Shown piece by piece: positions 10,210 through 41,831 of a stretch of DNA of 64,000 nucleotides. The stretch's first letter is position 1; each line of letters starts with the position of its first letter. A program made the translations under genes and the position numbers. Under the pieces are notes generated by a model. The model saw only the letters and a program-made list of their open reading frames with translations, was not told where the DNA came from and did no database searches. Source of the stretch: Cyanidioschyzon merolae (Eukaryota); the NCBI GenBank assembly GCA_000091205.1, contig AP006497.2. The stretch is one strand, 5' to 3'.

Positions 10210-10500
10210 GCGCGTCGCAGCGTGTAACGAAGCGAACACAGGCGGATGGAGATTGTCGTATTCCCTTCCAGCTTGGATTCTTCTTTCAGTGTTTGTTTTA
10301 TCATGGACAACAGTGCATGGAAACCATCGATCGATTGGAGCAGCTTGTAAAGCGGCATGTGACGAAGCGAGCACTGGCGAATGGACTTTGGTCGTATTCC
10401 TCTTCAGCTTGGATTCTTCTTTCAGTGTTTGTTTTATCATGGACAACGATTCATGCAAACCATTCATCGAATGGAGTGTCGAGCGCTCATATGGCCGGTA
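10210..10500. repeat. Tandem direct duplication, 2 copies of about 145 bp.
   Basis: Unit 1 (from about 10231) and unit 2 (from about 10375) both contain ccagcttggattcttctttcagtgtttgttttatcatggacaac followed by related sequence. On translation the peptide (I/L)P(F/L)QLGFFFQCLFYHGQ(Q/R)(C/F)M(E/Q)TI repeats twice. Confidence 0.75.
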
Positions 10501-16209: not shown

Positions 16210-17088
16210 CTAGCGACTTTTTTGCTGGTGTGAAGACGCACCCCGTCGCTGCGGCGCCCTCGCCCGGACAGCTGCAGATTTCAATGGGTTCGGGAAGAAC
16301 GCGTTTCGGTTCAGTGACTTGTACTCGGCAAAGTTCTCCAAATACCACTGATGGTTGCTCCGTGCCCTGGGGTATAAGTTCGAAAACGTCCAAAGCGCGA
16401 ATGAGAACGCTGCCCACGTCTGTGCGGCGATCGCAAAACCCGTCCATTCCACAAACTCAGAGAAGTAGTTCGGCGCGCTGACGTAGCGATACAGACCACC
16501 ATATGGAATAGCGTAACGTTTCTCTTTGATCTCTTCAGGGTTTCGCCGCAACGCTCTCGTGATCGCGTCGCTATGCCAGTTGCCAATCAAGCCACACACC
16601 CAAAGCAATAAGCCGCTGCAGAATGCCCAGTCCAAGGACCGACGCGAGCGAATGACCAATTCGTAAACGAACAGTGCTTTCGCATTTAAATAGGTGTTAA
16701 TGACGCAGAACAGGATAGCTGTCGAAACAACAGTGAAGGTGGTAGGCTTCGAGCCTCCACGCATCCGCAGAGGGAACACAAAGGCGCGGTTCGCATAGTG
16801 AACAAGCCAACAGAACGCCAACGTAACAGTCATCCACTCCCGTTCATCAAACCCGAGCTTCAAGAGTTTGTCGGTACGCTGACGAAGCCAACGAGTCAGG
16901 TACACGGCCATAATCAGGAACGAGGGGCTCTCTTGTATGATCCAGCCCAGGTCGCTGCGCAGCGTAGGGCCCCAGCCGGTACGCAAATGCCGCCCGTATG
17001 GTGCTGATACGAGGAAAAGCACTGGAAACACAAGTACGGCGAGAGCAATCCAGCTCCATAATAGTGCATCATCCGAAAGAAGGTTCAT
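16210..17088 (-). CDS. 3-oxo-5-alpha-steroid 4-dehydrogenase family protein (SRD5A/DET2-like steroid or polyprenol reductase), 292 aa.
   Basis: ATG verified at 17088. It is a multi-TM protein with the C-terminal signature ...KRYAIPYGGLYRYVSAPNYFSEFVEWTGFAIAAQTW..., matching the Steroid_dh motif P.GG.FxYVS.PNYxGE..EW.G.A. Confidence 0.8.
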   Translation of the reverse strand: MNLLSDDALLWSWIALAVLVFPVLFLVSAPYGRHLRTGWGPTLRSDLGWIIQESPSFLIMAVYLTRWLRQRTDKLLKLGFDEREWMTVTLAFCWLVHYANRAFVFPLRMRGGSKPTTFTVVSTAILFCVINTYLNAKALFVYELVIRSRRSLDWAFCSGLLLWVCGLIGNWHSDAITRALRRNPEEIKEKRYAIPYGGLYRYVSAPNYFSEFVEWTGFAIAAQTWAAFSFALWTFSNLYPRARSNHQWYLENFAEYKSLNRNAFFPNPLKSAAVRARAPQRRGASSHQQKSR

Positions 17089-17483
17089 TATGAAAGGGGG
17101 CGATACCGCTTCACGTTCAAAACACCACGATCCAATTCTGTATCATAGCCGTATGTGAAGCGCGAGGTGATATGCGGTGCGGCGCATCATCAGAGACGCC
17201 ATCCCTGCACGAGATCGATGCGCCTGAACGGTTTCAATCTGTATATTTCTTGACATGATGGAAGGGAATGGACATGGCATGAACGGATCCAACACAGCCA
17301 TGAACGCCCATGATATAAATTAGAACATCAATGTATCTGTTAGTACAAGGAAGACAGTCGGTTGACGGATGCACCCCTGGCGGACGCACTGCGTACCCGC
17401 TGCAGCGACTGTGCAGAACGTTGCCTGCACCTCCGGCAGCTGGTCTCTTTGGTTACCGTGGTTCGCTCTTCACAGAGTCAGCG

Positions 17484-19586
17484 ATGGTGTTCTTGATTGT
17501 GGATTTTAGCGAAGTAAGCCGGGGTGGCGTGAAAGCGCGGGTCCAGGTTACACCGAACAGCCTGCTGTCGGAAGTTCTGCGACAAGCCTGGGAACAGGTG
17601 CAGACAAGGTGCGGGAGCGCTGTTGGCGACGCTGCCGAGCCTCGGCTCGCATCTTTACCGGCAAACTGGGGACTTCGGCATGGGAAACGCTGGCTAGACT
17701 TGTCGCTACCTTTTCGGCTGTCGGGTTTATCGGCTCAGGCCCGGATAGTTGTTGACGAGCGCAGTGTCAGTGAAACGGCGAAGACGAGCGTTACTGGAAA
17801 ACCTGGACAGACAGCAGACCTCGCTCAGGGCGTCACACCTGCGCATTCGCTGACTGTGGCTGTGCAGTACGAGAGCGACCCCCCAGAGCGCTACATCGCA
17901 CCTGCAGTATTGGAGGATACGCTCTGGAGCGTGCTCGAGCGGGCGAATCCGGAGCGTCTGTGGTGGTGCCGCCCCTACTTGCTAGTCGCACGGTACCTGG
18001 AGACTGCGCACTATGGAGTCAGCCATTTTCGAAGCCTCCGCTTACGAGATCTGGGCCTAAGTCCGGGCACGCGTCTCCTGATTCGAATACAGTGCCTCAC
18101 CACGGATGACGACTCCGGTGGCTGGGAGGAGGTGGAAGCGTCGGCAGGGGCGGCTCGATCGCCGGTCGCTTCCAACAGGCACGATCACGCGGATGCAACA
18201 GGCGGTTCTGATATCGCATCTGTGGACAAGGTGAGCAGCGGTCAGGCGGCGACGCGAGAATCACAGGCAACTGCCGATTTGCATCTGCAGCATGTCGAGC
18301 AGCAAAGTACGCACCTGGTTTTGGGAAATCCAGGAGCGAAGTCCGCTTTCGTGGATGCCCCAGCACGCGTGCTCGACACTGTCTCCCGAACGATCGAGGA
18401 GCCAGCAGCATCATCTCCGCAAGGAGAGCGCGTGCCGGTTACTGGCTCCAGTGATCCCTCGACTGCCAATGGTGATCGGCAAAGAGACACGCGAGCCGAC
18501 GCGAGCACGAACCCACGGACACCGTCGCCTTCAAGTCGAGGCGCGAGGCCGTCCACTTACGCTCTTGTCGAGATGCACGAAGTGGACACCTCTGTCCCGA
18601 AAGTCGATGGAGTCGTAGCTGAGCCAGCGGATGCACGAAACTCGGCCTCGTCGGTGAACACGGAATCAGGTACAACCCAGATACCTATACAGGGAGCGGA
18701 GTCAACCTCGGAGCTGCTGATTCCAGGTCGCACTGCATCTGACGCCCCTGTTTTAGAGACGAACGGAAATGCAGGAGCACCTGCAGGTCAGGTGCCTGAG
18801 CGGTATGTCCGTTTCTACCTGCCGACGACGATCCGCTTTGATGCGCAGCTCCTCGACCTACCCGATACTTTTTACGATCTAACACCGGGGGAACTGCGAC
18901 GGATCCTTCATGCACAGCAGCGACAACAGGAAGAAGCAACCGTTCTCCGAACCCGCAGGCATACAACTGCTTCACGAGCAGGCGCAACGCAGCCGGAGCA
19001 GTGTGTGGTACGTGTCCGGCTTCCCGATCAGACGGTCATTGAGGGTCGTTTCTGGTGCAACGAAAGCCTAGACGACCTGTACGCTTTCGTGCGGCGCTTT
19101 GTAACGAGCACGAACGGGGCCTTGGACGCATTCAAGCTCTATCAAACGCCACCGAAACGGGTGCTGCATGCCGGGCCAACAACGCTGCACCAAGTGCAAC
19201 TCTGCCCAGCTTCTGTGCTAGTCCTGGTTCCGTCAACATCGAATACGTATGTTACTCTGGGCTTGCGCCCAGAATTTCGTTCTCGCTTGGAGAAGTCCCC
19301 GCTGGAGGCTGCATTTGCGAAGGAGGTTGCACAGGCAGAGGCGCTGCGTCGCGAGTATGCTGGTGTCATTTCGTCACCACATACCACGCCACCGGAGGCT
19401 GCCGCGGCGACCGCAGACGGCACGGCAGCCAACGCCGGCAAGCAGATTCGTTCGGAAGATGCAGGTACCGGAGATCGCGAGCCGGATGCTTTCTCGAAGG
19501 CGGATAGAGCTCGCAACGACGCTGAGCAGCAGTTGAAGCAGCGGTTGCCCAAGTGGTGGCGGCGTCCTCCAGGTGGGCGTTCGTGA
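17484..19586 (+). CDS. UBX-domain protein of the TUG/ASPSCR1 (UBXD9) type: an N-terminal TUG-UBL1 domain, a long disordered middle and a C-terminal UBX domain. The track ORF starts at 17331; the homologous start is the ATG at 17484.
   Basis: The N-terminus MVFLIVDFSEVSRGGVKARVQVTPNSLLSEVLRQAWEQ...RWLDLSLPFRLSGLSAQARIVV resembles the ASPSCR1 TUG-UBL1 (TVKVTPSTVLLQVLEDTCRRQ...LDLSLQWRFANL). The C-terminus VVRVRLPDQTVIEGRFWCNESLDDLYAFVRRFV...FKLYQTPPKRVL has the UBX pattern (R.P.G......F.....L.DLY.FV......F.L....P). Confidence 0.7.
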   Translation: MVFLIVDFSEVSRGGVKARVQVTPNSLLSEVLRQAWEQVQTRCGSAVGDAAEPRLASLPANWGLRHGKRWLDLSLPFRLSGLSAQARIVVDERSVSETAKTSVTGKPGQTADLAQGVTPAHSLTVAVQYESDPPERYIAPAVLEDTLWSVLERANPERLWWCRPYLLVARYLETAHYGVSHFRSLRLRDLGLSPGTRLLIRIQCLTTDDDSGGWEEVEASAGAARSPVASNRHDHADATGGSDIASVDKVSSGQAATRESQATADLHLQHVEQQSTHLVLGNPGAKSAFVDAPARVLDTVSRTIEEPAASSPQGERVPVTGSSDPSTANGDRQRDTRADASTNPRTPSPSSRGARPSTYALVEMHEVDTSVPKVDGVVAEPADARNSASSVNTESGTTQIPIQGAESTSELLIPGRTASDAPVLETNGNAGAPAGQVPERYVRFYLPTTIRFDAQLLDLPDTFYDLTPGELRRILHAQQRQQEEATVLRTRRHTTASRAGATQPEQCVVRVRLPDQTVIEGRFWCNESLDDLYAFVRRFVTSTNGALDAFKLYQTPPKRVLHAGPTTLHQVQLCPASVLVLVPSTSNTYVTLGLRPEFRSRLEKSPLEAAFAKEVAQAEALRREYAGVISSPHTTPPEAAAATADGTAANAGKQIRSEDAGTGDREPDAFSKADRARNDAEQQLKQRLPKWWRRPPGGRS

Positions 19587-30327: not shown

Positions 30328-31029
30328 CTACGGTGCAGGTCGATCGAGCAGTGCTGGATCCAGCTTGCAGTGCAGTTCCTGCTGCGCTTCGAATAGGCGA
30401 AGGAACGCCTCAACGGCGGCACGTGTATCCGCTCGCCAGCAGAGTGTCGCCCTCAGCTTATCGATAGATGATCTCTCCGCTGCACTATCGTTGTGCGCTG
30501 ACGCTGTATCCAGCGGAAGATAGCAGCGTTGCCGTAGGGTAGACTCTGGCCACTGGCCTCCTTCCGCCGGTACCAGCTCGAGAACGCGCCCCAGGAACCA
30601 GAACGTCACCGCCGGTCGACGAAGCGTGCCTTTCCCGTCCAAAGAGTCAGTACACGGGACCGCTTCACAGAGACTGCAGTGCCGAACCAGCGGTCGAAGT
30701 AGTTGCACACGGGCACCGGCCTCCTCGAAGGCCTCGCGACAGGCCGCAGCAGCGGGTGTTTCACCGACCTCGACACCGCCGGCCGGTAAGATGTAACGGG
30801 CTGGCTGTTGCCCCGCTTGTCGCTGATTAGCGCCGTCGCTGGTTTGATGTCGAGACGTCACAGCTAGGATGAAGCGCTCATCCGGTGACAGGGCCAACAC
30901 ACCGGCTCGCACGCGAGCATCCAAGGCGCTCCGGTCGGCGGAAAGCCTCTGGGCACAGCGGCACGGCTCGAAGCCAGTCACAGTTTGCCATCCGAGCTCC
31001 GAGACTGAAGCTGGTGTATCGTCCGACAT
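30328..31029 (-). CDS. Nudix hydrolase (234 aa from the ATG at 31029). The track ORF extends to 31407 from a GTG, and that extension overlaps the SmpB gene on the other strand.
   Basis: The canonical Nudix box GGVEVGETPAAAACREAFEEAGARV fits Gx5Ex7REUxEExGU. ATG verified at 31029..31027 (MSDDTPASVSELGW...). The codon at 31407 is GTG. Confidence 0.8.
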   Translation of the reverse strand: MSDDTPASVSELGWQTVTGFEPCRCAQRLSADRSALDARVRAGVLALSPDERFILAVTSRHQTSDGANQRQAGQQPARYILPAGGVEVGETPAAAACREAFEEAGARVQLLRPLVRHCSLCEAVPCTDSLDGKGTLRRPAVTFWFLGRVLELVPAEGGQWPESTLRQRCYLPLDTASAHNDSAAERSSIDKLRATLCWRADTRAAVEAFLRLFEAQQELHCKLDPALLDRPAP

Positions 31030-31240
31030 TATAGGGCGGCTCAGACCCCACCGCGCTACTGGTCTGGGGGTCGCATTCCCGCAGACCTTGTGCTTTGGTA
31101 CCCGCGAGCAACGCAGAAGCCGGTCAACGTCGCTGTTGCGCACTGTTCGAAACGAAGCGCTGTACGCGCAGGGTAACGTTTGTGTGAATCGAAACGCTTC
31201 TCTGCGGCTGTGTTCGCTGCTCGGGCGCCTTCGGGGACGC
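31030..31240. promoter_or_regulatory. Putative shared, bidirectional promoter region of about 210 bp between the divergent Nudix (-) and SmpB (+) genes.
   Basis: The call comes from the head-to-head arrangement of the two homology-anchored start codons. No motif was verified. Confidence 0.35.
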
Positions 31241-31876
31241 ATGGCTACCTTAAGCTTCCTTTTCGGTACGTCTTCTGCCAGGTTCACTTCAGGACACGAT
31301 GCATGGTCGCGGGCGGGTGTCCGAGCGTCGTGGAACGTGGCGCCAGCCCAGCGTTTGCCCCGAGCGAAGGTCGGACTGCGGACCCTGGTGGCGCGCACCA
31401 AGAGCACCTCGAGTCCTAGCGTCGAAAACCGTCGAATAAACTTTCAGTATGAGGTTCTTTGGACCTTGGAATGTGGAATAGAGCTCAAAGGAACGGAGAT
31501 TAAGTCGGTGCGGGCGGGGAAGATGAACATCCGAGACGCGTTTGCGCGGGCGAAGCGAGGAACCAACGACCTCTGGCTCTATAACTGCCATATTGCGCCA
31601 CATGACCGAACAGCGACGTTCTTCAACCACCAACCGACACGACCTCGCCGTCTCTTAGCGCATAAACAGGAAATTCGGCGGTTGCTGCAGGCTCAAGAGG
31701 AAAAGGGACTTACGCTGGTACCGCAGCGGTGTTACTTCGACCAGCGCCAGCGGCTGAAAGTGCTGCTCGCAGTCGCCCGTGGTAAGAAACTTCACGACAA
31801 ACGCGAGAGTATTCGGGAACGTGACGAGGCACGTTCCATGAAACGATTCGCCAAATACGACCTGAGAGACTTGTAG
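31241..31876 (+). CDS. smpB: SsrA-binding protein SmpB (tmRNA trans-translation cofactor) with an N-terminal organellar-type presequence of about 60 aa. The track ORF starts at 30869 and overlaps the Nudix gene; the ATG at 31241 is preferred.
   Basis: ATG verified at 31241. The presequence MATLSFLFGTSSARFTSGHDAWSRAGVRASWNVAPAQRLPRAKVGLRTLVARTKSTSS is R/S/T-rich with no acidic residues. The SmpB core NRRINFQYEVLWTLECGIELKGTEIKSVRAGKMNIRDAFA...LWLYNCHIAPHD...RPRRLLAHKQEIRRL...KGLTLVPQRCYFDQRQRLKVLLAVARGKKLHDKRESIRERDEAR is collinear with E. coli SmpB ([35 protein letters not shown]...TRKLLLNQRELDSL...[22 protein letters not shown]). Confidence 0.85.
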   Translation: MATLSFLFGTSSARFTSGHDAWSRAGVRASWNVAPAQRLPRAKVGLRTLVARTKSTSSPSVENRRINFQYEVLWTLECGIELKGTEIKSVRAGKMNIRDAFARAKRGTNDLWLYNCHIAPHDRTATFFNHQPTRPRRLLAHKQEIRRLLQAQEEKGLTLVPQRCYFDQRQRLKVLLAVARGKKLHDKRESIRERDEARSMKRFAKYDLRDL

Positions 31877-32140
31877 AGGGCCATGCCCACCAGCGTTGTG
31901 GCTGCATGCCTTGTGTCGTCCGCGATGCTGCTTCGAGGTCGTTTGAGCAACCGCGGTAGCCGCTGGGGCCCAGTTCCTTGGCTTGCATGAATAGGCACAT
32001 CGCCATTTCCCAGCGATTCCAAGAAGGAGACTCGAACCTGGAGGCCATGCATTTTTGCAGCTCAAGCCGCTGAGGCGCACACGCGCTACCACCGTTCTGG
32101 GTGTATGCATCTACGTTTATCCCGTTCCGATCCCGAGCGC

Positions 32141-32848
32141 CTAGCGGTGCTTTTCGTAAACCCCTTGTGCCCCTGCGACAATGACCACAGAGGCCATGTC
32201 GAGAAATAGTCCATGCTCGACAACGCCTACTGTGTCGCGCAGCGCTTGTGCTGCCTGGTAGGCATCGGCAATGGGCTTCTCGAAATACAGATCCACAATA
32301 TAGTTCCCGTTGTCAGTGACGTACAGGGCACCAGCGGCATCGCGACGTGCCTCAGCGCGGCAGCCTGCCAGGGCAGGAAGCGCGGCAATTTTCCGCATGG
32401 TATGCTGCCAACAGAAAGGTGTGACTTCCACAGGCATGGCTCCGCTGACGCCAAGACCCGGTACAAGCTTGCTCTCATCAACAATAACAATGAACTGTTT
32501 GGCGCAGACTTCGACCATTTTTTCCCGCAATAGAGCACCACCGCGTCCTTTCACCAGGTTCAGTGCCGAGTCAACCTCATCCGCTCCGTCTATGGCAACA
32601 TCGAGTTCTGCATCCTCGTCCAAGGTGGTCAAAGGGATATTCAAAGATCGCGCTTGCTCCTCGGTGCGCACCGAGGTTGGTACGCAGCGGATGTCGCGCA
32701 GTGCTCCAGCGGCGAGTTTCTGACCTAGCCGCTCGACCGCAAAAGCAGCAGTGGAGCCTGTACCTAGACCAACCACCATGCCCGAGCGAACGTAGTCATC
32801 GACTGCCTTGTACCCGACCTGTTTCTTGAGATCGTCGGCGCTCGCCAT
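32141..32848 (-). CDS. rpiA: Ribose-5-phosphate isomerase A (235 aa from the ATG at 32848). The track ORF extends to the ATG at 33052, giving a possible 68-aa N-terminal extension.
   Basis: MASADDLKKQVGYKAVDDYVRSGMVVGLGTGSTAAFAVERLG...VPTS...IDGADEVD...LVKGRGGALLREKMV... matches E. coli RpiA [35 protein letters not shown] and its catalytic DGADE and KGxGGAL blocks. Both ATGs were verified. Confidence 0.85.
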   Translation of the reverse strand: MASADDLKKQVGYKAVDDYVRSGMVVGLGTGSTAAFAVERLGQKLAAGALRDIRCVPTSVRTEEQARSLNIPLTTLDEDAELDVAIDGADEVDSALNLVKGRGGALLREKMVEVCAKQFIVIVDESKLVPGLGVSGAMPVEVTPFCWQHTMRKIAALPALAGCRAEARRDAAGALYVTDNGNYIVDLYFEKPIADAYQAAQALRDTVGVVEHGLFLDMASVVIVAGAQGVYEKHR

Positions 32849-33621
32849 TGATGTGGAGAAAACGCCCCCAACAGCTAGTCGACGTGAATGCGCGCGTAGC
32901 CAGCGTCCACTGGTACTGGCTGTTGTGCTTCTGCCCAGGATGCGTGTATACCGGTCAGTTCTGGCGCCTATGTTGCAAACCCGAGGTTGATTTTTGAGAG
33001 TCCACAGGAACGTTCCTGTTGGTGATGCGAAACTCACAGAGCGGTCGAACATAGCCTACGAATACGTCGACAGCTTACGACTCCTGCAAATGCGACTGGG
33101 GAGCGCAGTCGCACCGCGAGCCGATGCGCCTCCTGGGCAGCCGCTCGCGCTGCGCCACAGGCGCACGGCGTGTTACGAGCAGCACGCCTTGCGGCAGGCG
33201 CTGCTTCGCCTCGGCAGACCTGCTGGTCGTTTTGTGCACGAGGGTTGCAGCTGCACGTTCCATGTGGGTTGCTGAAGCGTCACGGCTGTATTGCCGTACG
33301 ATGAATGGCGGCGCATCCGGTGTTGCGCCTCACGCTAGGCGAAAGGCGACGCAGCAGTGGCACGATCCCTGGCGGGACTCGAACCGCTGCTCTCGCTACC
33401 GACTCTAGAACATAAAAGACGCACGTGTCGTGGACAGAGTTTGCATGTTTCCTGGTGAACTCCATTTGTCAAGCATGTTGGGTCGCATAGAGCGTGAGGC
33501 ACGCGCGGTTGCGTCTGTGCGGAACGCACACCCGTTTCGTTTCGGTGCTGCGCGCCCGAACGTGGACTGCGCGGTCGAGCCCCCAGACACCACGGCAGCG
33601 AACTGGATTTGGAATGGTAAC

Positions 33622-33650
33622 GATGATGGTGATGGTGATGGTGATGATGA
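33622..33650. repeat. (GATGGT)n / (GAT)n microsatellite.
   Basis: gatgatggtgatggtgatggtgatgatga is read directly. It would encode DDGDGDGDDE on the plus strand and an H9 run on the minus strand, but no supported gene contains it. Confidence 0.9.
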
Positions 33651-34089
33651 AATTCGAACTCCGAAGCAACCACAAAGGAAGTGTGCTTGATGGCCCGACA
33701 ACCGCTCGCAGTCGCATGTTCGGGATTCTCGGATCCGATGCATCAACGCCGTGCCATGGAGGCAGTGAAGAGGCGCAACCAGCAGCGAGTGCGACATGCG
33801 CGCCTGATGCTCAGCTGTCCGGGCATCATGCGGATGCCTGAAAACCCGCTCCGAAGCAGTACATCCAAAACCACGATGAATGCTGGTAAAAATGGAATGT
33901 ATTACAGCATGCATGGCGGCTGCATCGATTTGGAACTGTTGATCTGGGACCAAGATCCGGCTAGATGGATCCCAGAATACAAGTGCGAACGGCGGTGCAC
34001 GAATCGATATCCTCACCGCTTCCTATGCGCATGCATCTTTACAGCCTCCTGAACGCAACTGGACTCGAGACGGCGCTCTGTACGCAAAT

Positions 34090-34505
34090 CGTCCATGTTG
34101 TATGGTGAGGTACATGCGCTCACCGTGCCTCACCACGGAGCTTGCATCCCGCCGTCTACGCGGCACCCTGGTATCGAGCGCGCAGTCAAGGATCCCAGAA
34201 TGATCATGTATCCTGATTCCGTGTCGGGATGGAGCATTCCTTCATTCGACGCTCTCAGTGGTATGGCAAAGCCGCTCTGTCTCCGTGCAGCCTCGGTAAC
34301 AGTAATTCAGGCGCCAATGCGGGCGCTCAAAGCAGGCACCTGTCACACGACAGAACATACGAAACGACCAATACATCCGAGAACAAACAATGGAACTTGG
34401 AGGTAAGATGCAGCATGATGGACACTTCTTCGATTACCATTACCCATCCGGCAATATGGGATTCATGGTCAATGTAAACGTTTTGTCATCGAAAAAATCA
34501 GTGTA
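34090..34505 (+). mobile_element. 5'-truncated non-LTR retrotransposon 3'-end copy (C2, diverged subfamily).
   Basis: It aligns with the LINE 3' end and with copies C1, C3 and C4 (see C1 evidence). It ends with gtcaatgtaaacgttttgtcatcgaaaaaat. Confidence 0.55.
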
Positions 34506-35699
34506 CCATTTTCATCGCGTCCGGGGTGAAGGGCGAAGCACCGGTTGGTGCATCAAAAACAGTGTTGTGTCCCTAGACTGACGCAAGTTTTGGATAAAAA
34601 CGGGCGTTTACATCTTGTATGTGGACGCGTGCTCGCAACTGAACTCGCTCTAGCACGTTGCTTGCAAACACATAACTACCCGTACATAGTAGACACGGTT
34701 CCAAGGTAGCTTCAGCGTTACCGGGAAAGCCACCGAGCCTAGTTGCAGCGCAACGTGAAGCAGTTGTCACTTGCCTGCATCTGTTCAGGACAACTGAACG
34801 AGACAGTTTTCAAGTTGTCCACAGTTTAGGCTCAGTTAGCGAGAGGAATACCGTTGAACAGCGCCAGGTACCTGTCCAGAGTCATACCTCCCGTATCTGT
34901 AGTACATCCGCTGGAACGCTTGAGGCAGTTCTCTGCCAGCGCTCATGCGAGCCGTCGGCTACAGCCCTGTGGTGCCGCGGGACTCTTTAAACGCGGTAGA
35001 AATGGCAGCAGCAAACACTGCAGAATGATAAATAACAACAAAAGAAACCGGTCACAAACTATACATGAAAGAACAACTATCTTAACGCCCCATGCACCAC
35101 GTCCGCCTAGGAGGTCTAGTATTTCCGGAGGAGCTCTGAAAGTGGGTTAACACGGGGTGCTTGGGCGACGGCGAAGGAAGCCCACACCAGGGACCTTGAC
35201 CGTAACGAACGGAGGCGCGGAGGCAGTTGCAGCAGAGAATGATGACGAGAATTCTGAGCAGTTATCCGCTGCTCTCGAAACAACGCTGCGGGTTCCGGCG
35301 CAAATCCTGGATCCATCCTTGAACTCGGGCTACGTTTTACCTCCTACCTTGGCTACCTACCTCAACTTTGGAAGCAATCTCGGCGGATTCTGCGGAAGAC
35401 GGCTGGCAGCATGTTCGCGGTCGAAGCTGGAATGAGCGACTTACCCGCCTACGTGTTTGGGGAGCGGATACGAAGCCGCTGAAAGGGTGGTTTGCAGACT
35501 GTTCCCAGTGATTGAGGGGAGCTTCACGTGTCCGGCAAGATAAAGGTCGCATTCGAATCGACCTTGACTAGAGTCCTTCTGATTCTACGCTAGCGCTGCA
35601 GCAGACACTCAGTGAACGACTGGAATGCAGGAGGCAATGGTGGCGTGTGCGTTCTCACACCCTGGGGAGGGTGCATCTAAATTGACGACGTATCTCTGG

Positions 35700-38600
35700 A
35701 GTACCGCAGCGCTATTCCTATTCCCTTATGCGCTACGACTCGATAGGTTTCGCATCATGGAATATTTGTGGGATAACCTCGAAACTATACGACGAGATAT
35801 CGAATTACCAGTACAGTAATGAAGAACTGATACACGTCGAGGACTGTACAAAAGGAAAAGAGATCCAACGGGATACGGAGAAGGAGACACAGAAACCTCA
35901 TGATCCACCTAGATGCAAAATAACCAGAGAAAGCAGCTCAGGAAAGAGCCCGAAGAAGAAGAAGACCAGCAAGAAAAAAACAGAAGAATAGAAAAAAGAA
36001 CTCCCAAACGAGCCCATCACAAGTTATCCCCTGAAAGGGCACCCCAGCGGGAACTCAAGAAAGCCGTCGCCGAACCCAGGCACCTGCTCACAGCGCTGAA
36101 GATCCGAAATGCCGTGCATGCAAATCTTTAGACCAATTGGCACGCGAGTTTGTAGATGGGAATCAGAAGACTGCCAGAGAACTGGGACTGCTTGCACCAG
36201 AACACAACAGTTGCAAACCTCAGTACCTCAAACGACGTACCAAAACTCGGATTGATGAATGCCACCGACTCAATAAGATCCTCAACCGCACCGCCATACG
36301 CGCCAACGCCGGAGACAAGGAAGCGAAGGCAGTCCCAACGGCGCTACAGGCACAACATGAGGAAGCTATCAAAAGAAAGAAGAAACGTTCCAGAGAAGAC
36401 AAACGAGGGGATCGAAACCGCAAAATCGCCTCCCTGGCGAAATCTATGCTCGAGAGCACCACCGAAGATGAGACCTGGCGCTACATTCGATCGAGACTGG
36501 ACCCACCAAAAAAGTGCTTGGGGCTCACACCAATCGTTTATAAGAAAGCGCTGAGGACGGAGAGTGCCTCAGTGAATGAGGCCTGGACGGACCACGGCAC
36601 AGAATTACATGAAGACGCAACTGGGCACTGCCGAAACCGAAACTATTGGCACCAATATGCTGCAGAACTACCACGCCTCGACCCGGTACCGGAATGGAAC
36701 GACCCAATCTTCTGGCCTGAATCTGTTCGGGCCCTGTTAAGCTCATGCAACCGCAAAACACCTGGCATTGACGGTATCGCTGCCGAGTGGATGAAACTGG
36801 TGATCCCAAAATACGAGACAACAGGGACACCATCGATACCAGATAAACCTGACACAATCTTAGGCAAACGCCTTCTGGAGCTCATCCAACGCATGTTTGA
36901 AGAAGCCTACATCCCTGATGTATGGAGGGCTGCCGAGGTCGCACCGATCCTCAAAAAGGACTCCCACATACACAGACACGAACAACTACCGGCCTATCGG
37001 CCTCATCCCGTCAATCATGAAGCTACTTTTGCGCCAACCTCACGAACCGGATCCAGAGAGGCCTCGAGGAACGCAAGTTCTTCGCCCCAGGGAGGGCTGG
37101 ATTCCGGAGCCGCGAGGAGTGCATGAGCCATGCCCTGACCCTCACTGAAGTGGCGCAACGTCGCTTTATTCGTGACCGACAACCAACTTACGTATGCTTC
37201 ATTGACTTCCAAAAGGCCTTTGACACGGTCCCGCACGAGGCCCTATTTTTGAAGATGGAACGAGCCGGAGTCTCCGCAAAGTGCTTGGCGTTCTTCCGTG
37301 CGCTCTCTGCAGACTCGTGGATGCGCATCCGACTGGGCGACGGCTGAAGAACCCCTTCCATAAGAATCCGCCGTGGACTGCGGCAGGGCGAGCGCGCATC
37401 CCCGCTCCGTTTTAACATCTTCATCAACGATCTGCTGAACAACTGCAGACAATTCGCGGCTGAGGCGCCGTGGATAGACTGTGGAGATGCTCGGTGAGGA
37501 GCGCCCACATGGGAACTGCCTCGAAGGCCTTCTACTTGCGGACGATGTCGTGCTGTTGGCACCCGCCCTGGAAACGCTTGCGGCTAGCATGGAACAAGTC
37601 AGCGCCTGGGCCGATCGCTGGGAGATGAACGTAGGAGCATCGAAGTGCGGCGTCATGGTCATCCATGGAGACTCGCAGAGCATTCGCAATCGCTCGTGGC
37701 GGTTGCAGAATCAGGAAATTCCGATCGTGGAAAAATATCGCTACCTGGGGGTCGGTCTCACGCCGACGCTCGACGAAAAGGCACACGTCGACGTGGTGAT
37801 CGCCAAGATGCATAGACGTACAGCGATCGCACGCCCAGTCCTATCCGACCCCTCTATCCCCTTAGCAATCCGTACCAGGGCACGAAGGATGTGTATCATC
37901 CAGCCTGCGACCTGGGGTGCTGAATGGTGCGGCATGAAGCACCCAAATGCCTCGCGTCTGCAGACAGCCGCCAACAGGGCAATGAGACTCGTTGTTGTTG
38001 GATGCTCAGTGCAGAGCAGAGCAACCACCCCGCTGGCACTCGGACCTGAACTCCAAATACTCTCAATAGAAGCGATAGCACCAGGTTGCCGGGCACGCAT
38101 ACGGGCCAAAGGGCGCACTATGCGCACCTCTTTGAGTCGGGTTTTCATGCAGACCCCAACGCACCGCAAGAACACTTGGATGAAATCAACGCAGATTTGG
38201 GTGAAGCGCCTCTTAGGAGACAACATGCTCCAATCGTTCCCCAGGAATACAGAATTCTCCCGTCGCCTGAAGCGAACGGTCCAAACAACAGTACGGGAAT
38301 GTAGACATGCAGTCAGTCGCGCCCTTAACGCCGGCTTGACTCTATACCGGAACTACAACCTAGCATACACATGCAAGTACTGGTGGGAGGCGCTGGAGTT
38401 CCCGGGACTTGCTCGAGGTACCCAGTGGCTCGCGAAAATCCGCGTTGGTGGCTTCTGGCTACCAGCACGGGCTCTAAGCCGTATGGGAACACTGGAATCG
38501 CACTGGGAATCACACTGTCCCTGCTGTGGGGATGAGACCCCCAAGACGCTGACATATTTAGGCTTACAGTGCCCGCGCTGGATGCAGGAGCGCAACGAGC

Positions 38601-39300
38601 TCCTTGAAGGACAGCAGCAGCTGGGCATCATCGTGATAGCCGAAGGCCGGACACTCACTCTGAGTGTAGCACTGGCAACTGATGGTCCGCTAACGGAGCC
38701 TCAGCGCTCATTAATGGCGAACAAACTCACATGCTACCTTCTAGAAAAAAGGGTCCAGCGAATCGGATGCGAACACGGGTTTAGTGTTCTTTGTGCCTAC
38801 CCACTGGTGGGTGTCAAGCACAAACCCGCATTGCCAACCGACAACAACGCATTCCATGCATGATCACGAAGGAGAGAGGCGGCTCCCAGGATATATCCGA
38901 ACAGCCATGTTTCTCCAGCGTGTCGTGCAGCGAAGGCAAGCCTGCATCCGCAGACTGTCCAAGCACAAACTGACGTCGAGTTCCGATTCTACGTCGGGTG
39001 AAACACGCCTCGAGCCGACGCCCGCTGTGGTACGGTAACGCCGTTCTAGCTCGATGAACTATCTGCTCTAGCGTTCAAGCGCAAAGGCGAATATCGAACG
39101 GCAGGTACGAGGCACACACGATAGGACGTATGAAACGACCGGAATATCCGAGAAGAAGTATAGGTAATGGAACTTGGAAGTAGGCTGTTTGATGGATACT
39201 TCACCGCGCATTGGAAAACACAAAAAAAGTAAGAAAAGAAAAATGCGCATAATCGGAGAACGCTGGCCAAAGTAAACGTTTCGTCAATGAAAAAAATGCC
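35700..39300 (+). mobile_element. Degenerate LINE-like non-LTR retrotransposon (about 3.6 kb). It has an APE-endonuclease remnant at the 5' end, a frameshifted reverse transcriptase and a 3' tail.
   Basis: SWNICGI at about 35750 resembles the start of the L1-type AP endonuclease domain (SWN.NG). RT motifs lie in four different frames: PGIDGIAAEWMKLV...VWRAAEVAPILKK (motif 0/1), TNNYRPIGLIPSIMKLL (motif 2), FIDFQKAFDTVPHEAL (motif 3) and LLLADDVVLLA (YxDD-type motif 5). The 3' end at 38.9-39.3 kb is shared with five truncated copies elsewhere in the window. The boundaries are approximate. Confidence 0.8.
36137..38863 (+). pseudogene. LINE ORF2 reverse transcriptase region, inactivated by at least three frameshifts.
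   Basis: Track ORFs 36137..37126 (frame 2), 36897..37148 (frame 0), 37123..37347 (frame 1) and 37481..38863 (frame 2) each carry consecutive RT motifs in the canonical order. Confidence 0.8.
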
Positions 39301-39508
39301 GCAGTTGAAGGGAAACGTGATCTTGATATCTAGCATGTAGCTCTAATGTAAACGCTGTATTTTCGTTACCTTCATAGCCAAGTATAGTTTTCAGTTCATT
39401 GGAGTTCCAAACCTCAAACATGTGTATTCAATTGTTTTGTCGCAGTATATAACAGAAGCGTTCAAGGAGCTTTCTTTTTCAAAAAAAAAAAACTAAAAAA
39501 GGAAAGTT

Positions 39509-41660
39509 ATGAAAAAGCAAGTCGACAATCCTGGAGGCCGAGGGTCGTCGGCTGCCAAAAAAAAAACAAAAAACTCTGCCGAGTCCAGAAGAAAAGGAAG
39601 AGAAGAAGGACCGAAAGGAGGAGGCTCTCCGTCGAAGGCGGCAAGAAAGACGAATGTACGACGAGATGGTTGTGAAAGCCGGTTTTCTTAAACATATCAA
39701 GGATCCGTACAGGGAAAACTTGCGTGACGCTTTCGAAAAACGTGTCGACTCGTACTCCAAGAGTACTGTGAAGGCGTCGTCAGGGCTGATGCATTTGGTG
39801 AGCGAGATGTATCGCGACGTGACGCACATGGAAACGGTCGAGATTCGGGGCGAGTCTCTCGACATCGCCTTTATTCGTCACCTGATGCTTGATACAGGTG
39901 AAGCGCGGAGGGAAAATGTGCTAGTGCATGCCCTCCACGAAAAACATCCCTTTGACGGGTTCGAGGGTACTCGGTACAAGGGTGACCGGAATATTTACGA
40001 CTATGGGGCCATGAAGTAACTCACGAATCTGAAGAACCGTTTGACAGTGAACCTCGAACGTTTCATGATACGCGCCGTGTTTGCGCTCTACCCGGGCATC
40101 TCTCGCAAAGGAAAATGGGCGATTATCAATGGCATCACGAACGATCGCAAACATGAAGATGAGGTCGAATTTGTCGACAAGAAGGCGTCAAACGAGAACA
40201 CGAATGCAGCTTCTGTCATCCGTGCGGCTATAAAAGAGCATCGTGCAGTCTCGGGGCTGACGAACCCAACAGAAAAGGTATTAGATTTGAAAAAAGATAA
40301 GGAAAGATACGATCGCCTCGTCCTACGGTATTTCGTGTTTTAGGACCGAGAGCTCGAACGCAAGGCAGAGATGAAGCAGAGCGAGGAAAAAAATGAAGAG
40401 TGGGAGAGACGGAAGGCGTTCCTAATGGGGAAGCGCTTCAACGTCGTTCCAATATGCAACATCAAGTCACATTTCGTGACTGTCGACTCCGGCGTCCTTT
40501 ACGGCATCATGAAGGAGATCGGTCCGGAGTTCAACGTTAGCAGGGAGGAGTTCTCCAATGAAGCCCGTGAGACGTACTGGAAGAGTATCTTCGATTTCAA
40601 ACGTCTCAAAGTAAGCAAACAAAAGGTATTCACTGGGATGATCGAAACCGATGGGATGGCCATGTGTGTACACTATCGGCGGTTGAAGAAAGATCGTCCA
40701 GTCCCGCCCTCGGCAGCGCCCGTGACGAAGGATGAAGAAAAGGAGGAGGCTGGTCCTGCGACTCGGCAGGTAGAGGATAACGACCTTGTCGTTGGCTCGG
40801 TGAAGCATGAGGATGAGAAGGAGGCGGATCCTGCCACACAGAAAGTGCAGGATAACGACATTGTCGTCGGCACAGCCCCCGGAAACACTAATATCATAAC
40901 CATCTCTGTACCAAAGCGTGCGGAAGATGGTACTGATGGTAACTTATGTCAGAAAGACATGCGTCTTTTGAGGTTCTCGAGAGCGAGATACTATAGAGAA
41001 TCCGGTATAATGAATGCGAGGGAGAAAATTGGTACGTGGAATGCAGGAATGAAGGATCACCTGGAAGCTTTGAGCGAGATGACTAGCCGAGGAGCGGACT
41101 TTCAAGCTTTTCGGGAGTTCATGGAAGTTCGCGTTGCTCGTTGGGATGCACTGTGGAAAGAGTATACAAAGCCTCGGTGGGCTCGTCTACGTATGAATCT
41201 ATTCGGTGGGAGGCAGCGAGCGTCCGCGAACTTTTTCAATCAGTTGAGTGCCCTCAAAGAGGACAAGACTCAAAGGCTCGTAGTAGCATATGGAGCAGGG
41301 CGCTGGAAGACCCAAAAAGAAACTATGCCAGCTCCAACGACAAGAACATACAAGGAGTGTGCACGGCGTTTCGTTACGATACCTGTAGATGAGTTCCGAA
41401 CGTCCTAAACACAGCATGAACTGGGTTGTACACTTCAGAGCGTCGAGATGGAAAAGTGCCAGCGGAGTGCTGAGGATATAGCAACGTACGGACCGCTGAC
41501 GGAGGAGCTAATGGAAAGGAGGGCGAAAGTTCGGGGACTACTCGCATTAGTAAGTACAACCAGCGATGGCAAGAAACGTATGGAGTTTGTTCAACGAGAC
41601 TTTAACGCTACCATGAATATTCGAAGAGGTGCGGTGTTGGAGAAAAGACCTCCAGAGTGA
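39509..41660 (+). pseudogene. TnpB/Fanzor-like (RuvC-type) ORF of about 715 aa if read through. It is degenerate, with one frameshift in an A-run and three in-frame stop codons, and it lies about 200 bp downstream of the LINE 3' end.
   Basis: Five same-frame segments (39513-39653, 39654-40019, 40041-40343, 40371-41408, 41448-41660) are separated only by single in-frame stops. The ATG at 39509 is one frame off, next to the A10 run at 39556-39566. Segment ends read ...RRFVTIPVDEFRTS (compare TnpB ...VdP.yTSq before the zinc finger) and ...QRDFNATMNIRRGAV (compare TnpB RuvC-III DADvNAAiNI.rrG). A candidate RuvC-I reads [15 protein letters not shown] (compare Fanzor GIDPGvrNlaT, with the catalytic Asp replaced by Ala). 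The Zn-finger cysteines are mostly absent. The N-terminus is Lys/Glu-rich low complexity. There is an internal 24-aa tandem repeat ([15 protein letters not shown] / [15 protein letters not shown]). Confidence 0.45.
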
Positions 41661-41831
41661 ACAAGAAAGAACTTTATTGGACAACATCTCAAAGTCGATT
41701 TATATGAGAAGAAGTTGGAACCAGCAGTGGGTGGCCGGTCCAAAAAGACGGGGAGGCGTGTTTGCACTTCAGTTGGAGACGCTTTTGCTAGGGCACGTTC
41801 ACCACCACTCCTGTACACCGGTGGCGATGGC

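Follow-up and report, generated by a model that had tools for sequence, protein, structure and literature searches.

We analysed a stretch of 64,000 nucleotides of Cyanidioschyzon merolae DNA (GenBank assembly GCA_000091205.1, contig AP006497.2), hereafter the window, which carries a gene for SmpB, the protein partner of transfer-messenger RNA (tmRNA, the product of ssrA). The best-supported form of the SmpB coding sequence (CDS) lies at 31241..31876 on the plus strand; it encodes 211 amino acids (aa) plus a stop codon and is an exact substring of the GenBank protein BAM81626.1 / XP_005537662.1. Two parts can be distinguished in it: an N-terminal extension of 61 aa ahead of a conserved ENR motif (31241..31423, plus strand), which is a putative plastid transit peptide, and the mature SmpB domain with its C-terminal tail, GKKLHDKRESIRERDEARSMKRFAKYDLRDL (31424..31873, plus strand), which corresponds to positions 2-142 of the 143 in the family profile. 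A Nudix hydrolase gene is transcribed divergently from it, on the minus strand. As set out below, this is very probably the nuclear gene for the plastid SmpB of C. merolae, inherited from the cyanobacterium that gave rise to the plastid.

The identity of the protein is supported by profiles, structures and motifs alike. Residues 61-205 of the 211-aa form covered the PF01668 family with an E-value of 5.1e-51 and 172.8 bits (cutoff 27), and both NCBIfam equivalog cutoffs for SmpB were exceeded (NF003843, 176.7 vs 130 bits; TIGR00086, 169.1 vs 119.1 bits). Bacterial SmpB structures aligned with the C. merolae protein through the tail, e.g., 7ljp over residues 62-207 with an E-value of 8e-39. The motifs GTE-KS-RAG and GKKLHD-R were invariant in the alignment with cyanobacterial homologues, and the basic C-terminal tail, GKKLHDKRESIRERDEARSMKRFAKYDLRDL, carries the GKK-HDKR motif; an SmpB tail with this motif is required for tag translation. 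Both the domain and its tail are intact. The gene was already present in GenBank, where BAM81626.1 (335 aa) is described as "ssrA RNA (tmRNA)-binding protein, small protein B", and its locus tag, judged from the numbering, is probably CMO290C. The window is nuclear DNA of C. merolae strain 10D: the 335-aa ORF, CMO288C, CMO289C and ribose-5-phosphate isomerase are all identical to GenBank proteins of that strain, and eukaryotic genes (Mon2-like, UBX and EAP30/Vps36) surround the SmpB gene. A nuclear SmpB gene with an organellar presequence had been proposed in the initial annotation, made from the letters of the window, and the PF01668 match, the exact GenBank match and the N-terminal extension of about 60 aa confirm the gene and its extension.

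A misplaced start of the SmpB CDS would mislead targeting predictions, and the N-terminus of the 335-aa form is probably not the real one. The two longest open reading frames (ORFs) of the locus are 30869..31876 on the plus strand (ATG start, 335 aa) and 30328..31407 on the minus strand (GTG start, 359 aa), and they overlap antisense over 30869..31407. The CDSs in GenBank, BAM81626.1 for SmpB and BAM81625.1 for the Nudix gene CMO289C, also overlap antisense, by 161 bp (30869..31029). The SmpB orthologues of Cyanidiococcus (207 aa) and Cyanidium (231 aa) align starting at the ATG at 31241, and no similarity to the extra 124 residues of the 335-aa form was found in the N-termini of either orthologue. 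The 211-aa form was also called by metagenome gene callers in dozens of hot-spring contigs. Single-nucleotide polymorphisms (SNPs) were compared among ten environmental C. merolae variants (L003-L012, hot-spring metagenome contigs): both SNPs in the 636 bp of the 211-aa CDS and all five in the Nudix core fell at third codon positions, and four of the seven in 30869..31240 fell at positions 1 or 2 of the 335-aa frame, these counts being small. Because the orthologue alignment, the metagenome gene calls and the SNP codon positions all agree, the start at 31241 is favoured; the GenBank CDS probably begins 372 bp too far upstream, and its upstream part (30869..31240, plus strand) is probably non-coding, as suggested by the orthologues, the SNPs and the overlap with the Nudix CDS.

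It is improbable that the 335-aa GenBank form is a real or an alternative product, with a pre-domain region of ~185 aa (124 aa of it upstream of the 211-aa form) translated from an ATG at 30869 inside the Nudix gene. The frame is indeed uninterrupted from 30869 onwards, and that codon is the start in the reference annotation, but the added residues lack a counterpart in the orthologues, the antisense overlap with the Nudix CDS would have to be accepted, and the SNPs of the extension, few as they are, have no third-position bias. The start at 31241 was already used in the initial annotation, which had also warned that long GTG-initiated ORFs of the two genes overlap antisense and form an annotation trap. 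The overlap is there; the GTG start applies to the Nudix ORF only, the long SmpB ORF beginning with ATG. The trap is real, and the reference annotation, with its 335-aa ORF overlapping CMO289C, appears to have fallen into it. The probable correction of the start codon is the only addition made here to a gene that was itself already known and catalogued.

With the start at 31241, the protein carries an extension of 61 aa that had no counterpart in bacterial SmpB in the alignment. This extension is 26% Ser+Thr and contains nine Arg+Lys and one acidic residue; starting with MA, it carries no charge up to residue 13, and residues 6, 8 and 15 are Phe. In the SmpB proteins of Cyanidiococcus and Cyanidium, Phe is likewise found near the N-terminus. 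Import into red-type plastids is described as requiring an N-terminal Phe in transit peptides (PMC2222254). The extension would fit a plastid transit peptide, and its composition would also be compatible with a mitochondrial presequence.

The closest relatives of the C. merolae SmpB were those of Cyanidiococcus (82% identity) and Cyanidium (58%); after these two, all the named matches among the best 120 of 6682 were cyanobacterial, with 50-56% identity. A tree sample of 80 named bacterial SmpB genes was gathered from GTDB genomes with an alignment-based profile scan, which found relatives where a scan of genome contigs with the single SmpB protein had found none. Maximum likelihood (ML) distances, computed with a Gonnet-derived rate matrix and gamma rates and followed by neighbour joining (NJ), set the algal clade beside Gloeomargarita with weak bootstrap support, and a sister group made of alphaproteobacteria only appeared in 0/100 bootstraps. 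For the likelihood placement, the Cyanidiales clade was tried on every branch of an 83-taxon bacterial backbone. Cyanobacterial edges received a weight of 0.95 (stem, 0.49; Gloeomargarita, 0.45) and alphaproteobacterial edges 0.00, and the best cyanobacterial placement beat the best alphaproteobacterial one by 35.6 log-likelihood (lnL) units. Placed alone, the C. merolae SmpB gave 0.91 for cyanobacteria. The leave-one-out controls were all correct: an alphaproteobacterium was assigned to alphaproteobacteria (0.999), a cyanobacterium to cyanobacteria (1.0), and a member of Chloroflexota and one of Synergistaceae elsewhere (1.0).

Several points weigh against a plastid SmpB of cyanobacterial descent. 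As to ancestry, Kimura-distance NJ gave an exclusive split of cyanobacteria plus eukaryotes in 24% of bootstraps; quartets joined the protein with cyanobacteria in 43% and with alphaproteobacteria in 46% of cases; signature columns were cyanobacterial in 12 cases, alphaproteobacterial in eight and neither in 25; a sister group made of cyanobacteria only was obtained in just 37/100 of the ML-distance NJ bootstraps; and the placement model was home-made (Gonnet-derived), with a fixed NJ backbone. As to localisation, the N-terminal composition of SmpB cannot by itself tell a plastid from a mitochondrial presequence, no localisation experiment was found for C. merolae SmpB in a literature search on CMO290C and CMO289C, which gave no papers, and the placement of ssrA in the C. 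merolae plastid comes from the literature. The group hidden Markov models scored SmpB at 188 bits (cyanobacterial), 164 bits (alphaproteobacterial) and 196 bits (mixed), and neither these scores nor the Kimura NJ, the quartets or the signature columns were decisive. Only the likelihood placement was, and it gives SmpB a cyanobacterial affinity.

The choice of organelle is also informed by what is recorded about tmRNA. In Hudson, Lau and Williams 2014 (PMC4131195) the gene is catalogued as "Algal plastid-targeted: Cyanidioschyzon merolae" (tmRNA Website id 19184), and the plastids of such algae are stated to encode tmRNA. A C. merolae organelle microarray comprised 243 plastid and 62 mitochondrial genes, with tmRNA in the housekeeping cluster (PMC3372377). 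The supplements of a 2025 tmRNA database paper, in the portion available, held no Cyanidiales entry. Within the 64,000 nucleotides of the nuclear window, neither tmRNA nor tRNA was found with ARAGORN or Rfam. Ohta et al. reportedly counted, in 2003, tmRNA among the 36 RNA genes included in the 243 plastid genes of C. merolae, and in 1998 they are said to have divided its 62 mitochondrial genes into 34 protein, 3 rRNA and 25 tRNA genes.

In the initial annotation SmpB had been assigned to mitochondria, where it would be imported to work with a tmRNA of the mitochondrial genome, like its counterparts in oomycetes and jakobids. An Arg/Ser/Thr-rich presequence with few acidic residues would suit such a destination too, and the crude quartet and NJ analyses left an alphaproteobacterial affinity open, but the evidence points to the plastid. 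The best named matches are cyanobacterial, the alphaproteobacterial edges carry no weight in the placement and fall short by the 35.6 lnL units given above, and the gene has been published as plastid-targeted (PMC4131195). Reports of mitochondrial tmRNA, moreover, are confined to jakobids, oomycetes and Provora, and the host is a red alga. The oomycete- or jakobid-type lineage that the assignment implied does not hold either: C. merolae belongs to a lineage from which no mitochondrial tmRNA has been reported. We consider a mitochondrial SmpB close to refuted and exceedingly unlikely.

For the plastid SmpB, the following course of events, which is the usual one for trans-translation in organelles, can be proposed as the most likely. 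Cytosolic translation of the SmpB mRNA would begin at the ATG at 31241, and the Ser/Thr/Arg-rich, Phe-containing extension (~55-60 aa) would direct the protein into the plastid and then be removed. The mature SmpB would bind the plastid-encoded tmRNA (ssrA) at its tRNA-like domain. Where plastid 70S ribosomes have stalled on truncated mRNAs, the SmpB-tmRNA complex, together with EF-Tu, would enter their empty A site, with the conserved C-terminal tail of SmpB probing the empty mRNA channel. Translation would then switch to the tag frame of the tmRNA, so that the ribosome would be freed and the peptide marked for proteolysis. The data show the identity of the gene, its genome, the intact domain and tail, the extension, the cyanobacterial affinity and the conserved synteny; of the scheme itself, it is the import, the cleavage and the activity of SmpB that we infer.

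Nucleus-encoded, plastid-targeted SmpB proteins of algae with red-type plastids were reportedly described by Jacob et al. in 2005 (J Biol Chem 280:5503). The C. merolae SmpB resembles them in being encoded by a nuclear gene, in its N-terminal extension followed by a complete SmpB domain and in its cyanobacterial affinity; nothing of substance differs, the sole discrepancy being the start of the GenBank CDS, 372 bp upstream. Mitochondrion-targeted SmpB proteins of oomycetes and jakobids are said to have been described by Hafez et al. in 2013, and these too are organellar SmpB proteins encoded in the nucleus with a presequence, whereas the C. merolae protein would belong to a different organelle and is placed with cyanobacteria. 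Mitochondrial SmpB proteins cluster apart from plastid and cyanobacterial ones according to Hudson et al. 2014 (PMC4131195), where the partner of algal plastid-targeted SmpB is a plastid-encoded tmRNA and the C. merolae gene itself is in the list. With the bacterial SmpB of Thermus thermophilus and E. coli, seen in ribosome-tmRNA structures (4v8q, 7abz), the protein has in common a match over the whole domain, the motifs GTE-KS-RAG and GKKLHDKR and a full-length tail; unlike them, it is nucleus-encoded and bears the 61-aa presequence. Two insertions, one of 2 aa and one of 1 aa, set it apart from cyanobacterial SmpB. The C. merolae SmpB fits the established pattern in which ssrA is kept in the organelle and smpB in the nucleus. 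As C. merolae is genetically tractable, the 211-aa form could conveniently be used in it to test how trans-translation works in a primary red plastid.

The divergent neighbour of the SmpB gene, CMO289C, lies at 30328..31029 on the minus strand and encodes a Nudix hydrolase of 233 aa that matches exactly BAM81625.1, annotated as "hypothetical protein". The longer ORF at 30328..31407 (minus strand) matched PF00293 with an E-value of 1.5e-11 and 44.9 bits (cutoff 21.1), and no NCBIfam model was matched by CMO289C at its cutoff. A canonical Nudix box, GGVEVGETPAAAACREAFEEAGA, occupies residues 84-106 of the 233-aa form (30712..30780 of the window) and fits the regular expression GX5EX7REUXEEXGU. 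The best solved relatives were diphosphoinositol polyphosphate phosphohydrolases (DIPPs), with an E-value of 3e-5 over 43 residues only. With the DIPP-type Nudix enzymes (human NUDT3/4/10/11 and yeast Ddp1) CMO289C shares the pattern P-R-(Y/W)-I-(L/V)-P-(A/G)-GG-(V/M)-E...AA-RE-EEAG, the likeness being confined to ~43 residues. In a word-based search, homologues of CMO289C were found in Cyanidiales only. Its N-terminus is acidic and without a presequence. The Nudix neighbour would be an enzyme unrelated to SmpB, probably a cytosolic one.

The ATG of SmpB (31241..31243) shares a CATG palindrome with a minus-strand ATG (31242..31240). A Nudix start at this minus-strand ATG, at 31242, was considered and rejected: it would add a 71-aa Arg/Ser-rich, presequence-like extension that is absent from both orthologues, and it would need a transcription start inside the SmpB CDS. 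The presequence-like look of these 71 aa is probably a coincidence.

Between the two start codons, the Nudix ATG at 31029 and the SmpB ATG at 31241, lies a spacer of 211 bp (31030..31240), presumed to hold the promoter and 5' untranslated region of both genes; the divergent Nudix gene about 210 bp away, as initially described, was thus found in place. Judged on geometry alone, the spacer is a plausible candidate for a shared promoter region. Its counterparts in Cyanidiococcus and Cyanidium were too different for an alignment with it, and no motif was common to the three. Among the ten environmental variants it had five SNPs in 211 bp, against the two in the 636 bp of SmpB. A scan of the spacer for sigma-70 promoters and terminators found nothing, this type of scan not being suited to a nuclear promoter.

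The order of the genes was conserved. A Mon2-like gene (plus strand), the Nudix gene (minus), SmpB (plus) and a ribose-5-phosphate isomerase gene (minus) follow one another in the same order in Cyanidiococcus yangmingshanensis, in Cyanidium caldarium and in one further metagenomic relative. The spacer between the Nudix and SmpB genes measures 211 bp in C. merolae, 153 bp in Cyanidiococcus yangmingshanensis and 292 bp in Cyanidium caldarium. The EAP30 and SSXT genes come next in Cyanidiococcus and Cyanidium, and an EAP30-like ORF is found downstream in C. merolae too. Since the whole block is collinear, the conservation is not specific to the Nudix-SmpB pair; the pair is old, but it is part of a longer collinear block and not a unit specifically preserved. 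A second divergent pair occurs in the window, with a steroid 5-alpha-reductase-like gene at 16210..17088 (minus) and a TUG-UBL1/UBX-domain gene at 17331..19586 (plus) separated by a spacer of <=242 bp, and hence the SmpB locus is not the only one with a short head-to-head spacer. The closeness of the Nudix and SmpB genes would result from a compact genome and an inherited gene order.

These data bear on the idea that the Nudix and SmpB genes form a functional pair with a shared bidirectional promoter, selected for co-expression. Their head-to-head order with a short spacer in three genera (153-292 bp) would agree with it, and we nevertheless regard it as unlikely, given that conservation spans the whole block, that no motif of the spacer could be aligned between genera, that the locus is more polymorphic in the spacer than in any other part, and that another divergent pair of the same window is <=242 bp apart. 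The Nudix protein, besides, lacks a presequence and resembles eukaryotic enzymes of the DIPP type most, and the families listed as neighbours of smpB in the available part of Hudson et al. 2014 (PMC4131195) do not include Nudix. We saw no evidence of a functional link between the two genes. That the pairing reflects real co-regulation from one bidirectional promoter is very improbable, and the same applies to the related possibility that the ATG at 30869 gives rise to a second, differently targeted SmpB isoform. Such co-regulation, if true, would link cytosolic nucleotide/polyphosphate signalling to ribosome rescue in the plastid.

Other features of the window were also recorded. The 2056-aa ORF of CMO288C is an exact match to GenBank BAM81624.1. 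The ribose-5-phosphate isomerase gene, at 32141..33052 on the minus strand, is an exact match to BAM81627.1 (303 aa). The annotated isomerase includes an N-terminal extension of ~68 aa (MFDRSVSFASPTGTF..., which contains Phe), and metagenome callers mostly placed the start at an internal Met, giving a protein of 235 aa; a plastid transit peptide would be in keeping with the long form.

The gap between the isomerase gene and the EAP30/Vps36-like gene (33053..41714) measures ~8.6 kb in C. merolae, as compared with ~1.4 kb in Cyanidiococcus (contig L001, 7887..9271) and ~0.8 kb in Cyanidium (contig L002, 7814..8597). It has a strong skew of A over T at 36-42 kb and of G over C at 40-42 kb, and contains plus-strand ORFs without family matches, together with a weak match to RVT_1 at 37481..38863 (E-value 5.8e-4, below the cutoff). 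A retroelement that inserted here and then decayed may account for the region.

Permuted and intron-rich tRNA genes are a known feature of C. merolae, and a T-arm-like sequence, GGTTCGAGTCTCC, was seen on the minus strand at ~32025..32037. A tRNA gene at this position was rejected, because ARAGORN found none in the window, Rfam none at E <=10, and manual folding of the context (31985..32110) gave no cloverleaf. An intergenic tandem repeat is located at 10227..10476, with 1.8 copies of a 136-bp unit and 87% matches. Finally, nuclear contigs like those of C. merolae were common in the hot-spring metagenomes of JGI and ENA, with 26 variable sites in ~1.8 kb at the SmpB locus among the ten variants used above; with such contigs, gene models of the C. 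merolae genome can be checked against natural variation.

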